A DNA stretch of 64,000 nucleotides from a virus, in the IMG/VR virus record IMGVR_UViG_2922727739_000003, positions 25,210 to 89,209 of that record. One strand, written 5' to 3'. Position numbers and translations under genes: made by a program. A model generated the notes under the pieces. The model saw only the letters and a program-made list of their open reading frames with translations. It was not told where the DNA came from and did no database searches. Positions 26,822 through 55,946 of this stretch are shown piece after piece. Each line of letters begins with the position of its first letter. Positions within the stretch are counted from its first letter, which is position 1.

Positions 26822-26833
26822 GAACGTTTGTTC
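26822..26833. promoter_or_regulatory. LexA/DinR (SOS) box
   Basis: GAAC-GTTT-GTTC matches the Firmicute GAAC-N4-GTTC consensus; about 10 bp upstream of the YhjD-like ORF. Confidence 0.75.
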
Positions 26834-48021: not shown

Positions 48022-48121
48022 TACATTTCATTATTTTTAATTGTATTTTTGTACACTTCATTTCTTTCTATCTGTAGAGTATGTAATCAGCCGAACCATA
48101 CGCTCGGCAATGGCTATGCAA

Positions 48122-48496
48122 CTAAGACAAGGCTAAGTGTAGCAAATTTGAATATTTATTTTTTTCATACAGGCTATATAGTATTTCTGGATCTGTTACT
48201 TTTAATCTAGCTAACTTAAAGCCATCGACTTTTTCTTGGCATAATTTTTCAAGTGCCATGATATTATTATCATTATAATCAACAATAAACTCACTCTTGT
48301 CCTTATACCCTTCTTCATCGATCAACTGTTTTCTTTTTTCTGAGAGATAAATATATTCAGAGCCAGGATTACCATTACAAAATAAATACATTTTTTGTCT
48401 GTCAGAGTCACTTCTCAAAAGGAACTCAATTTTTTTAATTATTATTGTGGCGCTTTTAGGTATATCAAGCCGATAAATTAGTTCGTCTTGCTGCAT
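48122..48496 (-). CDS. Hypothetical protein
   Basis: ORF track; SD AAGGAG; candidate own promoter upstream. Confidence 0.6.
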   Translation of the reverse strand: MQQDELIYRLDIPKSATIIIKKIEFLLRSDSDRQKMYLFCNGNPGSEYIYLSEKRKQLIDEEGYKDKSEFIVDYNDNNIMALEKLCQEKVDGFKLARLKVTDPEILYSLYEKNKYSNLLHLALS

Positions 48497-48654
48497 AGCA
48501 TTATCTCCTTGCTGTCGAATTCTATACTTTTATTATACGAGATTACTATAATTAGGCAACAACTTTACACACCATGTCTAAATATATTGACTTAATCAAT
48601 ATACTGGAAAAACGCCCATATAGTGTGTCACTTTTTGTCGAATCGTTTATTCAG

Positions 48655-48666
48655 GAACTTATGTTC
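48655..48666. promoter_or_regulatory. LexA/DinR (SOS) box
   Basis: GAAC-TTAT-GTTC(G), intergenic between the LytTR gene end and 48122-48496. Confidence 0.6.
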
Positions 48667-48727
48667 GTATTTATTTTGATTATACTACTGCCAAAAGGCA
48701 TAAGCAATATAAATCCAAAAATAACTC

Positions 48728-49141
48728 TTATTTTTTATTGTTTCTTAGTTTTTGCAGCATTTTTTTCACTGTCGCTAAATGTACCGCAGCTATCTCTACA
48801 AAGCTTTTTTTGTTTTTATCAAAGTATATCTCATAGACCTTTTCATCAATTTCATCAATCTTAGTAACGTCAGCCATGCTCCCTCTACCTACTCTTACGA
48901 AGCCTTCAATATTCTCAAATAAACGCATCGTCTGTTCCGTTCTTGTTTCATCGATATACTCGCCCATGTCTGTTATGTATACAATTCTTGTTTGCCCAGT
49001 TCTTCCACTTTTCTTTTCAGTTCTAAATCCTTGAATTTCAGATACTGGCAGCATAATTGCTACTTCGTCTATTTTGTCACCTATCTTTTTAACCACTTTT
49101 ATAGTATCCGTTGATTTCAATTTTTTCACCTCATAATTCAT
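48728..49141 (-). CDS. Stand-alone LytTR DNA-binding domain protein (no receiver domain); likely TTG start at 49120
   Basis: GFVRVGRGSMADVTKIDEID resembles the LytTR F.R.HRS.IVN...I motif; about 130 aa; last gene of the agr-like operon. Confidence 0.65.
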   Translation of the reverse strand: MNYEVKKLKSTDTIKVVKKIGDKIDEVAIMLPVSEIQGFRTEKKSGRTGQTRIVYITDMGEYIDETRTEQTMRLFENIEGFVRVGRGSMADVTKIDEIDEKVYEIYFDKNKKSFVEIAAVHLATVKKMLQKLRNNKK

Positions 49142-49184
49142 TTGGTGTCTCGCCTCCCAAAAGAAGAACGAGACACCAAATATC

Positions 49185-49307
49185 TTATTTCAATTCTTCT
49201 GGCACTGCTTCTCCATGGATCAACGTCCAACTAGCAGTGCTTACTACTGTTACAGCCAGCAGAGAGCAAAAACTACCAACAATCAGCATAAGTTTGTTCA
49301 ATTTCAT
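49185..49307 (-). CDS. agrD: AgrD-like cyclic-lactone autoinducing-peptide precursor (40 aa, absent from the ORF track)
   Basis: MKLNKLMLIVGSFCSLLAVTVVSTASWTLIHGEAVPEELK*: amphipathic leader, S-W-T-L-I-H core aligning with clostridial C-x4-H-Q-P, P-E-E-L-K tail; the ATG overlaps the agrB TGA (ATGA). Confidence 0.88.
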   Translation of the reverse strand: MKLNKLMLIVGSFCSLLAVTVVSTASWTLIHGEAVPEELK

Positions 49308-49840
49308 AACTTTTCACCTCCTCTCAAGCGTATCAAGAGGAGACTTTGTACTAGCGCTGCTAAATTCAAAACTGGAATATTAATCATATATATTAGCGTA
49401 ACTAATATTAAAGATATAATTTTAAACCATTTAAAATTTTCTGGTTTCACTCTTGTTTGCTGTTCGATTTTACTCGGTGCATACAACATTACAAGTATTA
49501 TACTCACTAGATACATAGTAAAAGAATAAGTCTCTAAATAATTGCCACACAATGCAATTAAAATTATAACAAGTGATGAAAAAACTATACACATTTCTGC
49601 TGATTTAAAATGAAACCCACCTGAAAACACTCTTACTGATGAAAAACCAATTAGTGCAAGTATTGCTTCTTTGGTAATCCCCAGCAACATCGATGCTATT
49701 AATACAATAAATATTGGTATTGTATTCGATATAATAAACTTAATTGTGTACCTTATTATTTGTTGTGATGGTAATTCATCAGGATATTTTCTTTTAGCTG
49801 CAATACTCCATTTATCAGCTAACTGATTAATCATATTCAT
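49304..49840 (-). CDS. agrB: AgrB-family peptide-processing membrane endopeptidase
   Basis: RVFSGGFHFKSAEMC carries His and Cys 7 residues apart, as in S. aureus AgrB H77/C84; LYAPS motif; multi-TM. Confidence 0.92.
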   Translation of the reverse strand: MNMINQLADKWSIAAKRKYPDELPSQQIIRYTIKFIISNTIPIFIVLIASMLLGITKEAILALIGFSSVRVFSGGFHFKSAEMCIVFSSLVIILIALCGNYLETYSFTMYLVSIILVMLYAPSKIEQQTRVKPENFKWFKIISLILVTLIYMINIPVLNLAALVQSLLLIRLRGGEKL

Positions 49841-50468
49841 TTTTAATTTCCTTTCTTCTTTCTATAAGTATCAGTGAAACAAATATTATTATCCAAAAAA
49901 CTACGCTAATGGTCATATTATCGAAAGTTGGCTTTGTCATTACAGACACTCCGATCAGAGAAATAATGAATAATACAACATTAGAGAAATTAATTTTGAA
50001 TTTCAAAGTATATTGATATGGCAATGTTGTAAAGAAAACAGATCGTTTTCTTAATGCAAGACTTATTAAGATCATTATTGTGTCACCTAAAAATTGAATC
50101 AACATTCCATAATCTTTTGTTGTGGTAAAAAAATCAATATTAAGTGTACTTGCAAGCACAAGCGCCGTTAATGTTTGTAAAATCATCTGCACTAAAAAAC
50201 TGATTCCCGATATTCTCAATGACGAAAGGGGAGATAGTTTAAACAAAATTACGAGAAATATTATCAATAATAACAAATTAGCAATAGGCGCAATTCTATT
50301 CGGTAGGTCGTATTCCACATATAGGAAGGTGCCTACAGAAATACACAGACTTGAAACAATAAACTGAATCCAGTAATCCCTAAGTTTTATAGAATACATA
50401 CCAAATCCAAAAATAAAAATTGCCAAACCATCCAACATTGAAAATATTATGTATTTAGCTGTCTCCAT
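49827..50468 (-). CDS. Multi-TM protein resembling an AgrC sensor domain, with no histidine-kinase domain
   Basis: About 213 aa from ATG 50468 (SD GAGG); 6-7 hydrophobic segments; ends RRKEIKNEYD with no H-box or HATPase domain; overlaps the agrB start. Confidence 0.6.
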   Translation of the reverse strand: METAKYIIFSMLDGLAIFIFGFGMYSIKLRDYWIQFIVSSLCISVGTFLYVEYDLPNRIAPIANLLLLIIFLVILFKLSPLSSLRISGISFLVQMILQTLTALVLASTLNIDFFTTTKDYGMLIQFLGDTIMILISLALRKRSVFFTTLPYQYTLKFKINFSNVVLFIISLIGVSVMTKPTFDNMTISVVFWIIIFVSLILIERRKEIKNEYD

Positions 50469-50515
50469 GTTCGCCCTCACGTTCTTATAATTGAATATAA
50501 TGAATTTGTACACTA

Positions 50516-50544
50516 AATATATCATCTGTAATTATTTATGTCAA
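50516..50544 (-). promoter_or_regulatory. SigA-type promoter of the agr-like operon
   Basis: TTGACA-17 bp-TATATT directly after the mrpR-like terminator. Confidence 0.8.
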
Positions 50545-50557
50545 CACAATTTTCCAT

Positions 50558-50592
50558 AAAAAAAAGTAGAATAAGAAAAACTTATTCTACTT
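50558..50592 (-). terminator. Intrinsic terminator at the end of the MrpR-like gene
   Basis: 12-bp stem aagtagaataag/cttattctactt with a long U-tract on the minus strand; overlaps the stop codon. Confidence 0.85.
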
Positions 50593-51556
50593 CATAAATT
50601 CTTTTTATGGTCTCAACATTAAGGAAATCTTGAGTATACATTGTGCTGTTGATTATGCCACCATCACGCAATCCAACATTAAATTGCTTACATATCTTAT
50701 GGATATCTGAACGATCTAAAGTTCTTTTATTTTGATCAAAGTATGCTTTTCTTGCCATTTCTAACATGCCTGAGTTTCTTATATCAATTGGAGTTAAGTT
50801 TGGTTTGTTTAATTTTTCACCAAATTTGGTAATAACGAATGTTATTAACGATTGTTTAACTTCCTCTCCTCTTGTGCTCTTTATTATATAATCATTATCT
50901 TTCAATTTAGAAGTATCTTTTCGTAGGCTACCTTCACCAAAATTAGATTTATATACCTCTTCTTGATCTGCTGCTAAAAGAGCTTTGATCAAAAAATCAC
51001 TAACAATGATCTCTCTTTCTGTTGTTTCATAGCGACCTACATTAGTCAGTTTTATTTTATTATGCTCTTTATCAATATTCTCCACTTTTAAAGTTCTTAT
51101 CTCAGAACTATTCCTACCTAATATACCTTCAAATATTGATAGTATTATTGCTATATCCCTATAGCTATCTAACTCTGATAAGGCATCTTCTAAGTGATCT
51201 TTTCGTATTAATGTTTGCTGTGGTACAAATTTTTCAAAGTCGTCTTTCCCTTTCATTGCAGCAAGTGGATTCATTTTATCTTTCCTAAGACCTTCACCAC
51301 TTGCCCACTCAACATATTTTCTGAGAATTGACCCATAGTTCATTGCACTACTTAACTTAGTGGGAGCCAAGAGGTAAATAACCTCTTCAAATTCACTTAA
51401 TGTAAAATCATAAAGATCTTTACCTAATCTCATTTCTACTCTACTTGCGCGCTTTAGCTTTCCTTCGTAGTTCTTACGAGTGTTTTCTCTAAATTCGCTT
51501 AAAAATCTTTTTTTGATCTCTGGATTATATAGGCTATCCCCATATATATTATTCAA
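50582..51556 (-). CDS. mrpR: MrpR/YopR(SroF)-like master repressor with tyrosine-recombinase fold
   Basis: 324 aa; YNPEIKKRFL...KDLYDFTLSEFEE, EGILGRNSSEIRTLK and LTPIDIRNSGM (degenerate R..HxxR motifs); directly downstream of a YopQ-like gene, as in SPbeta. Confidence 0.75.
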   Translation of the reverse strand: MNNIYGDSLYNPEIKKRFLSEFRENTRKNYEGKLKRASRVEMRLGKDLYDFTLSEFEEVIYLLAPTKLSSAMNYGSILRKYVEWASGEGLRKDKMNPLAAMKGKDDFEKFVPQQTLIRKDHLEDALSELDSYRDIAIILSIFEGILGRNSSEIRTLKVENIDKEHNKIKLTNVGRYETTEREIIVSDFLIKALLAADQEEVYKSNFGEGSLRKDTSKLKDNDYIIKSTRGEEVKQSLITFVITKFGEKLNKPNLTPIDIRNSGMLEMARKAYFDQNKRTLDRSDIHKICKQFNVGLRDGGIINSTMYTQDFLNVETIKRIYEVE

Positions 51557-51560
51557 TTTG

Positions 51561-52895
51561 TTACACCTCTTTGATTATATTTTCGAAATGTTTTAGTATG
51601 TCCACTTGAATGCGAGTAGACGAATAAGCCCTTTTAGCCTCTAATAAATCTATCAGTGTTTTATCGTTACTTAAATCAAGATCATCAATTATTTTATTTA
51701 ACTCCTTAGGACTGATATTTTGATTATCTTTTTGATACATTTTATAAGCGATCACTGTGTATCCCAAAAACATTAAAGGGTGATTTATATAGCTCTTATC
51801 ATACTTTTCTCTATTTTCCAAAAAAGCATCCACATATAGGCTTATCAAAATACCAAAATATTTCACAAGATAGTGTGATACATTTTGATAATCAAGATAC
51901 GTCTGAGGATTAAACGTTCTTTCAATTGCTAAATTTAAGATACTGAATGTTGTTAATTGTCCCACAGCAGTATTTGGCTTAGTTGCAGAGGCAATTCGAA
52001 TACCTTTAAGTTCGCTGTCCTGGTTGGTTTGTAATTCTTTTACGACAGATGCAGATCGCTCAGTAGAAGAAAGTTCTTTCTTTCTGTCTTTATTTAGAAT
52101 GTTAATTGTATTTATCTGACCAAAAAATTTAGAGGCGGTTTGCTGATCATAAGTTCTAATCGATAGTTCAAAATTGAAATCCAAATCATTTTTCTCATTC
52201 ATTGCTTTGACAGTAGCCTGCAAACGGTGAAAACCATCCAATATACTTATAGTAGCATCTTTGTTTATAATTAATTGTCCAAACTCGTCTTCTTTCGGAA
52301 TCCAAGTTACAGGTTCTGATTCAAAGTTATAAACGTTAAATCTTATGGTATCAGTTAAATAATCATTCGCAACAAGTTTATTAGCAATGGTTCTCACAGA
52401 AGATTGATTTACAATAGGCGTTTCAATAATTCCATCGTTGCGATTGCCTTTATATTTTAATCCTCTTTGAGATCTTGGATCGTATATTATCATCTGCGAT
52501 TCGAACATCTTGTTTAAAAGTTTGGCTGATATCTTTGATGAATATGCTTTTTCGTCAATTTGTATTGCATTAAAAGTCAAAGGTAAACTAATTGTTTCAC
52601 TAACAAATTCTATGGCTATACTTTCTTTGGCTTCTCTAATTTCAGTCGCTGTAAAATGTTCGAGTGGATCTATACCACCAAAAACACTATTTATGCAGTC
52701 AGTAAAGACACATAATAAGGGTAGGCTAATCTCTTCAATACTTTTCTTTTTTAAAACAATCTCGTTTAATGTTCCGTAAGGAACTCCTAGTGAGTTTAAT
52801 CTATCATTTACACTGAGTATCTTTTTTCTATTTGTCTTATGTTCGTCAAGTATTTCAGTAATTATCTTTTCAACTTCTCTACGATCAGTTTTCAA
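51561..52895 (-). CDS. YopQ(SroE)-like DGQHR/DndB-related protein
   Basis: ILDGFHRL motif, 444 aa, synteny with the MrpR-like gene. Confidence 0.7.
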   Translation of the reverse strand: MKTDRREVEKIITEILDEHKTNRKKILSVNDRLNSLGVPYGTLNEIVLKKKSIEEISLPLLCVFTDCINSVFGGIDPLEHFTATEIREAKESIAIEFVSETISLPLTFNAIQIDEKAYSSKISAKLLNKMFESQMIIYDPRSQRGLKYKGNRNDGIIETPIVNQSSVRTIANKLVANDYLTDTIRFNVYNFESEPVTWIPKEDEFGQLIINKDATISILDGFHRLQATVKAMNEKNDLDFNFELSIRTYDQQTASKFFGQINTINILNKDRKKELSSTERSASVVKELQTNQDSELKGIRIASATKPNTAVGQLTTFSILNLAIERTFNPQTYLDYQNVSHYLVKYFGILISLYVDAFLENREKYDKSYINHPLMFLGYTVIAYKMYQKDNQNISPKELNKIIDDLDLSNDKTLIDLLEAKRAYSSTRIQVDILKHFENIIKEV

Positions 52896-55934: not shown

Positions 55935-55946
55935 GAACGTTTGTTC
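55935..55946. promoter_or_regulatory. LexA/DinR (SOS) box between divergent mazF and rsfA-like genes
   Basis: GAAC-GTTT-GTTC, identical to the box at 26822. Confidence 0.75.

Follow-up and report, generated by a model that had tools for sequence, protein, structure and literature searches.

The DNA examined here is a stretch of 64,000 nucleotides (nt), called the window throughout, from the IMG/VR provirus record IMGVR_UViG_2922727739_000003, which comprises 164,715 bases and carries phage replication genes. A cassette of four genes related to the agr quorum-sensing system lies on the minus strand of the window. Behind one promoter, the genes for a membrane protein of 213 amino acids (aa), for AgrB, for AgrD and for a protein consisting of a LytTR DNA-binding domain only follow one another in this order (Table 1). 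Close homologues were found in Paenibacillus polymyxa and P. peoriae, and the element is a large SPbeta-like prophage of P. polymyxa, in which a master repressor of the MrpR/YopR type is preceded by a YopQ-like gene (PF22822, PF22823 and PF14072). In SPbeta, MrpR has the role of master repressor (PMC10516654). The region gave no match to phage records by megablast.

A cassette without kinase or receiver

The first-pass annotation of the window had described one SigA promoter ahead of four genes, the first three of which overlap, and this arrangement was recovered. The promoter directly follows the terminator of mrpR, which fills the space upstream of the -35 element, and the promoter looks constitutive. 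The agrB gene overlaps the membrane-protein gene by 14 nt and agrD overlaps agrB by ATGA. The membrane protein, AgrB and AgrD form a tight, translationally coupled core; agrD and lytTR are uncoupled, with a hairpin between them.

Profile searches of the whole provirus record returned no match to HATPase_c, HATPase_c_5, Response_reg or AimR. Each of the four profiles was matched in control genomes, and for the AimR profile (NF038310) the B. subtilis control scored above the cutoff. Hence, the module contains neither a kinase nor a receiver, and the phage is without arbitrium.

Table 1. Features of the cassette and its surroundings, numbered by position in the window.
Feature	Position	Strand	Basis or remark
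yopQ/sroE-like gene (DndB/DGQHR domain)	51561..52895	-	Pfam DndB E 3.8e-12; TIGR03187 DGQHR; phrog_5732 E 2e-85
mrpR/yopR-like master-repressor gene, recombinase-fold DNA binder	50582..51556	-	Pfam MrpR_N_CB 81.7 bits, MrpR_C_cat 46.4 bits
Intrinsic terminator of mrpR	50563..50593	-	13-pair stem, 5-nt loop, T run
Operon promoter TTGACA-17-TGnTATATT	50516..50544	-	11/12 consensus positions, extended -10
Membrane-protein gene, 213 aa, candidate peptide sensor	49827..50468	-	ATG 50468 behind GAGGG
agrB, AgrD-processing cysteine peptidase	49304..49840	-	Pfam AgrB 84.2 bits
agrD, 40 aa, predicted ring S-W-T-L-I, predicted cut before His	49185..49307	-	Conserved open reading frame and motif
RNA hairpin between agrD and lytTR	49139..49182	-	-28 kcal/mol, z -5.6
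Receiver-less LytTR DNA-binding protein	48728..49120	-	Likely TTG start 49120, 130 aa
Probable SOS-type early promoter	48655..48684	-	-10 TATAAT 48684..48679, then LexA/Cheo box CGAACATAAGTTC (48667..48655)
Direct repeat TCGACA-N5-TGACA, candidate operator	48626..48641	-	Sole exact copy in the window
Palindrome, 21 bp	48583-48603		Between the LexA-boxed and second promoters
Second promoter TTGCCT-16-TATAAT before the 124-aa gene	48532..48559	-	
Conserved 124-aa gene, first after the hub	48122..48496	-	

Conservation of the four-gene unit

The four-gene set is a conserved unit. The membrane protein stood directly before AgrB and an open reading frame (ORF) of ~40 aa at all of the distant members sampled (7/7), and five of these seven loci then carried a LytTR protein of ~120 aa, one carried none, and at one the contig ended too early. 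A scan of 18 species genomes seeded with AgrB gave the membrane protein in 13 loci, all from Paenibacillaceae, and the LytTR protein in 12. The same scan of IMG/VR yielded 29 loci, with the membrane protein in 28/29 and the LytTR protein in 27/29, and some of the loci in these counts are one element that occurs in two collections. AgrC-like kinases were encountered only in the five AgrB loci that lacked the membrane protein; in other words, the two architectures were mutually exclusive in the sample.

Nineteen large (121-218 kb) SPbeta-like IMG/VR records keep the order of DndB, MrpR and cassette. The yopQ/sroE-like gene, which opens the repressor pair ahead of the cassette, occurs at the same position in the diverged relatives designated L008, L009, L011 and L012 and in 19 viral loci. 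The same four genes were also found beside the integrase in Brevibacillus phage Abouo and Paenibacillus larvae phage Harrison. Abouo gp44 matches the membrane-protein profile with an E of 2e-40, Abouo gp47 reaches 29.4 bits on Pfam LytTR, and phages Davies, Emery and Paisley match the membrane-protein family as well. These small phages carry the cassette beside the integrase and a cI/Cro-type switch. Several genomic copies stand among ordinary chromosomal genes, such as those for LacI-type regulators, succinate dehydrogenase, PrkA, MatE and HflX. The cassette is therefore native to Paenibacillaceae, and two or more phage backbones have acquired it. The survey of phage and chromosomal neighbourhoods that the first-pass annotation had suggested thus found the cassette in both settings with its four-gene unit kept, and its description as phage-borne held for a provirus record with replication genes. 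A restriction to phages did not hold in view of the chromosomal copies.

Variants of the arrangement were also observed. The order of AgrB, membrane protein and LytTR was rearranged in this way in two SPbeta-like loci (L025 3998-5949 and L063 3923-5868), and L030 and L056 contain two LytTR genes each. Chromosomal cassettes of Cohnella (L022 398-3166; L027 1827-3173) adjoin one or two divergently transcribed kinases with SPOB_a and HATPase_c domains, and comparison of the membrane-protein family with the membrane domains of these kinases gave an hhalign probability of 1%. In public annotation the LytTR gene of the cassette is called a "peptidase" (Abouo gp47, L010 5651-6019; Harrison gp41, L066 4797-5153; phrog_15081).

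Components of the cassette and the downstream hub

The AgrB of the window has the intact His and Cys expected from the first-pass annotation, and neither residue (His77, Cys84) varies in the nine cassette AgrBs compared. The short agrD, which that annotation had picked out as a hidden gene, is real: it is preceded by a strong Shine-Dalgarno sequence, GGAGGTG, and its ORF and S/C-x9-P-x-E-L frame are kept in relatives, although it scores 16.3 bits on TIGR04223, below the cutoff of 19. The frame, written in full as S/C-x4-x5-P-x-E-L, was present in 29/37 distinct cassette precursors. In an alignment of these precursors anchored at the Pro that is conserved in the tail, position -10 was Ser in 25/37 and Cys in 4/37, and position -5, the first residue past the predicted AgrB cut, was His in 21/37. 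Three precursors have neither Ser nor Cys at the ring position, and in AgrD of the Abouo group the Ser lies one residue farther from the Pro. The distance from nucleophile to Pro is the same in AgrD of Staphylococcus aureus. The exchange of Ser and Cys at one column together with this canonical spacing supports the five-residue Ser lactone ring c(SWTLI) predicted from AgrD, as had been proposed at first pass, and the peptide family of the cassettes would be predominantly of the lactone type. A rearrangement to a homodetic ring, also raised at first pass, is pure speculation.

The membrane protein had been described as having six to seven helices and no kinase domain, and the analysis agreed on both points. 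Family-averaged hydropathy and the positive-inside rule gave a topology of seven helices with the N-terminus outside and the C-terminus inside. All annotated homologues share the length of 213 aa. A search of 1.8 billion representative proteins with its profile collected 65 clusters, all of 206-229 aa with end-to-end matches and with no kinase fusion among them. No match was found in Pfam or NCBIfam, and a profile search of the PDB gave only a chance hit with an E of 0.8. By these comparisons the protein is a family of its own (phrog_15604). Two Gln residues are nearly invariant in this family, and there are no conserved residues of a catalytic type; a role as a CAAX/MroQ-type protease is not supported, as there was no Pfam hit and there were no conserved Glu/His motifs. 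The predicted outer loops were more variable than the inner ones among close relatives with identical AgrD (10/33 vs 4/49 positions, p 0.015), and the best-kept loop was the long inner loop 139-163 (LRKRxxFFTTLPYQY...KFK). Two or three tandem membrane-protein genes precede a single agrB in L024 (1667-4014), L016 (237-1685), L056, Davies and Emery. A scan of genome contigs with membrane-protein patterns detected no relative, broader alignments gave no conserved stretch for searching, and Atlas feature searches with the protein returned nothing usable.

The last gene of the cassette encodes a LytTR protein of 130-137 aa, which is too short for a receiver domain, in agreement with the receiver-less regulator claimed at first pass. 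The Pfam LytTR score of the window copy is borderline (22.7 bits against a cutoff of 22.6), and 7/8 members of its family match Pfam LytTR, with a best E of 1.6e-11. The family profile finds the LytTR domain of AgrA (3BS1) in the PDB. Moreover, the AlphaFold2 (AF2) model reached a predicted local distance difference test (pLDDT) score of 86, and its top 13 fold matches in the PDB were all LytTR domains, including ComE, AgrA and 3D6W. The ORF is open from ATG 49141 (137 aa, 49141..48728), and a start at TTG 49120 is favoured by a conserved GAGGTG Shine-Dalgarno sequence and by the homologue N-termini MK[SL]TDTIKVV. A 44-nt hairpin, the inverted repeat I1, buries ATG 49141. Hairpins of unrelated sequence (z -3.9 to -4.7) occupy the same place in L008, L009, L011 and L012; the structure is kept and the sequence is not, and no T-run follows the hairpin. 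It may lower read-through into lytTR or stabilise the upstream transcript. Taken over the families named at first pass, profile searches recovered AgrB and LytTR, the latter with a borderline copy, placed AgrD below its cutoff, and did not find the sensor domain of AgrC.

lytTR is followed by a regulatory hub of 231 nt, which is conserved across loci whose proteins share only 20-60% identity. An invariant GTATAAT is followed by a LexA/Cheo box, a direct repeat, a palindrome and a second promoter before the 124-aa gene. The -10 and LexA/Cheo blocks do not vary among six diverged SPbeta-like Paenibacillus loci. The window contains GAAC-N4-GTTC three times, where 0.6 occurrences would be expected; the two other perfect boxes lie at 26822-26833 and 55935-55946, the latter upstream of a MazF-like gene. 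A LexA box stands 47-92 nt after lytTR in 12/18 MrpR-positive viral loci vs 1/18 other cassettes, which indicates that the SOS promoter is part of the phage backbone and that the cassette sits in between the repressor gene and this promoter. In this phage group, the LexA-boxed promoter probably serves as the SOS-inducible early promoter. The direct repeat is kept at the same place only in phage loci of the P. polymyxa group, and an SPBRE-like repeated element was rejected for it because the window has no further exact copy. A syntenic gene of 124-126 aa was found in L002-L004, L008, L009, L011 and L012, and every relative of the P. polymyxa group has it in synteny. In the window, this gene leads into the replication and recombination block. 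Its 124-aa product gave no family hit in Pfam, NCBIfam or PHROG searches and nothing usable in an Atlas feature search.

RNA libraries of three studies contain contigs that match parts of the operon, which shows presence there only; carry-over of DNA is possible. One contig of ~94% identity covers 50418..48105 and thus reaches from within the membrane-protein gene to where the 124-aa gene ends. A contig of run X6 ends at 50623, near the mrpR terminator; neither contig ends nor uncovered parts were counted as evidence.

Proposed peptide sensing without phosphotransfer and competing explanations

The cassette was compared with known systems. It shares with canonical agr (agrBDCA of S. aureus and the agr of P. 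polymyxa, PMC12180512) the His/Cys pair of AgrB, a LytTR domain for DNA binding in the regulator, and an AgrD whose leader is amphipathic, whose ring nucleophile precedes the cut by five residues and whose tail is acidic and contains Pro. Unlike canonical agr, the cassette has no AgrC histidine kinase, its regulator has no receiver, its nucleophile is mostly Ser (lactone) rather than Cys, and its genes run from the membrane protein through B and D to LytTR on one promoter. The LytTR regulatory systems (LRS) HdrRM and BrsRM of Streptococcus mutans likewise join a soluble, receiver-less LytTR regulator with a membrane protein in one operon and signal without phosphorylation, and their hallmark is two direct repeats of ~9 bp that are spaced by 11-13 bp and lie 4-11 bp upstream of the -35 of the operon (PMC6193735). 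Compared with the LRS, the gene order of the cassette is reversed, its membrane protein is unrelated, with seven helices and no DUF2154, and it includes genes for a peptide signal of its own, while no signal is known for the LRS described so far.

The Clostridioides difficile phage phiCDHM1 (PMC3901668) is similar in that its genes are phage-borne, follow the order of sensor gene, agrB and agrD, and include an overlap of sensor gene and agrB. The membrane-protein gene of the cassette occupies the place of agrC in phiCDHM1, which differs in having a full-length AgrC with a GHKL domain and no LytTR gene. Abouo, Davies and Emery were noted in one sentence by Hargreaves 2014 (PMC3901668) as having AgrB, AgrD and membrane proteins without a HATPase domain; none of the papers found describes the LytTR partner, the SPbeta-like setting or how far the family extends. 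Together with Harrison and Paisley these are phages of 44-58 kb, in which the cassette adjoins the integrase and does not follow mrpR. Arbitrium, the AimR-AimP-AimX locus found in SPbeta-like Bacillus phages, likewise encodes peptide communication and adjoins the sro/yopM-R repressor operon, and it is presumed to be the functional counterpart of the cassette, with no sequence relation. It differs in using a linear hexapeptide that is sensed inside the cell by a receptor of tetratricopeptide repeats.

The cassette may be a phosphorylation-free peptide-sensing device that feeds the lysis-lysogeny switch, with the seven-helix protein in the place of AgrC and the LytTR protein in that of AgrA, and this proposal is given an even chance of being correct. 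AgrB would cut the tail of AgrD before His and close the Ser lactone c(SWTLI) with a short N-terminal tail, and the peptide would be released outside the cell. The co-translated seven-helix membrane protein would serve as an outward-facing receptor in the place of AgrC. By analogy with the membrane anti-regulators of the LRS, from which the logic of the relay is taken, this protein would control the LytTR regulator by direct contact, most likely via its conserved cytoplasmic loop LRKRxxFFTTLPYQY, without phosphotransfer. The regulator would in turn act on target promoters that, like the direction of the effect, we can only infer. Given the location of the cassette between mrpR and the LexA-boxed promoter, and the lack of arbitrium in this phage, the output would most likely bias the maintenance or induction of lysogeny, and it would do so by the density of lysogens or infections. 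A more specific form of the proposal is tentative and somewhat improbable as it stands. In it, the AgrBD lactone, read by a seven-helix receptor that gates the LytTR protein, would be a second, independent means of communication between phages of Paenibacillaceae, would be combined with the SOS input near the master repressor, and would functionally replace arbitrium.

Several results weigh against the proposed phosphotransfer-free relay. The membrane protein matches no known sensor family of LRS or AgrC. Its hhalign probability was 0.5% with the AgrC of phiCDHM1 and 7%, in a non-collinear alignment, with a profile of six AgrC sensor domains, and the latter profile is shallow, so that distant kinship is still possible; the same two comparisons disfavour the protein as a simple "truncated AgrC". 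Its AF2 model, built from eight sequences, was poor, with a pLDDT of 48, and was left out of fold searches. No LytTR-type direct repeats (at most 1 mismatch) were present in the 210 nt upstream of the membrane-protein gene, and 21 relative loci had only scattered, chance-level hits of this kind upstream of the operon; autoinduction is therefore not evident. The TCGACA repeat of the hub was rejected as a LytTR operator because it occurs in a single phage lineage and does not accompany the cassette elsewhere. Moreover, lytTR is missing in L013, L019 and L061, and the chromosomal copies outside prophages show that a lysis-lysogeny role is not intrinsic to the cassette. The agr/LRS hybrid envisaged in the first-pass annotation was thus upheld in part: a receiver-less LytTR protein and a membrane protein share the operon, whereas the upstream repeats and a known LRS or AgrC sensor family were not found.

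The coupled core and a lytTR that is set apart by a hairpin and sometimes missing also mean that the membrane protein may serve maturation or export. On this account it would be a partner of AgrB and AgrD in maturation, export or self-protection, and the peptide would be sensed by AgrC and AgrA of the host, so that the phage would interfere with the host agr or eavesdrop on it, or, after uptake, by the LytTR protein. The invariant overlap of the three core genes, the uncoupling of lytTR and its absence from a few loci, and the lack of homology between the membrane protein and AgrC sensors all agree with such a role. P. polymyxa has its own canonical agr with a separate peptide, ICFGLF (PMC12180512), so a receptor that could be jammed exists. 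However, canonical agr loci need no such partner, the family shows none of the conserved residues of a catalytic type, and the tandem membrane-protein genes resemble the duplication of a receptor. Furthermore, the exclusion with AgrC and the co-occurrence with the LytTR-only protein (~90%) are better explained by a replacement of AgrC and AgrA. A maturation or export partner, the main rival to the proposal, is considered unlikely.

It is quite unlikely that the cassette is cargo (i.e., a moron) for the lysogen, with the LytTR protein acting on host genes or the peptide on competitors and with the mrpR site merely permissive. Its position is fixed in 19/19 large SPbeta-like loci, in the small phages it adjoins the integrase and the cI/Cro-type switch, and the SPbeta-like phages that carry it are without arbitrium. 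The same placement in the decision region of unrelated backbones would be unexpected for neutral cargo, even though chromosomal copies stand among housekeeping genes, the operon starts from a strong promoter of its own behind a terminator, and the RNA contigs come from culture libraries and are compatible with expression in lysogens. That the cassette is a decaying remnant of canonical agr, without present signalling after loss of kinase and receiver, is highly improbable, because the missing domains and the borderline LytTR score of the window copy are outweighed by four ORFs that stay intact across dozens of diverged loci and keep their lengths, catalytic residues and motifs, and by a membrane-protein family that is uniformly ~215 aa with no truncation series.

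Phage agr genes have until now been regarded as stolen pieces that need host partners and, to our knowledge, peptide communication that steers the lysis-lysogeny decision of phages is known only from arbitrium-type (RRNPP) systems. The module described here is a complete one of the agr type without a kinase; it is found at the decision region in two phage backbones that are unrelated, and host chromosomes carry it as well. Phages Abouo, Davies and Emery, which are in culture and carry the cassette, make the proposed phosphotransfer-free relay directly testable. If it is correct, the cassette would represent a new wiring of peptide sensing in Gram-positive bacteria, in which a membrane receptor acts on a LytTR factor without phosphotransfer, and would provide the first ligand for a LytTR regulatory system. 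A mostly lactone-type family of autoinducing peptides would then be predicted. The cassette would also explain how SPbeta-like phages that lack arbitrium could measure density.

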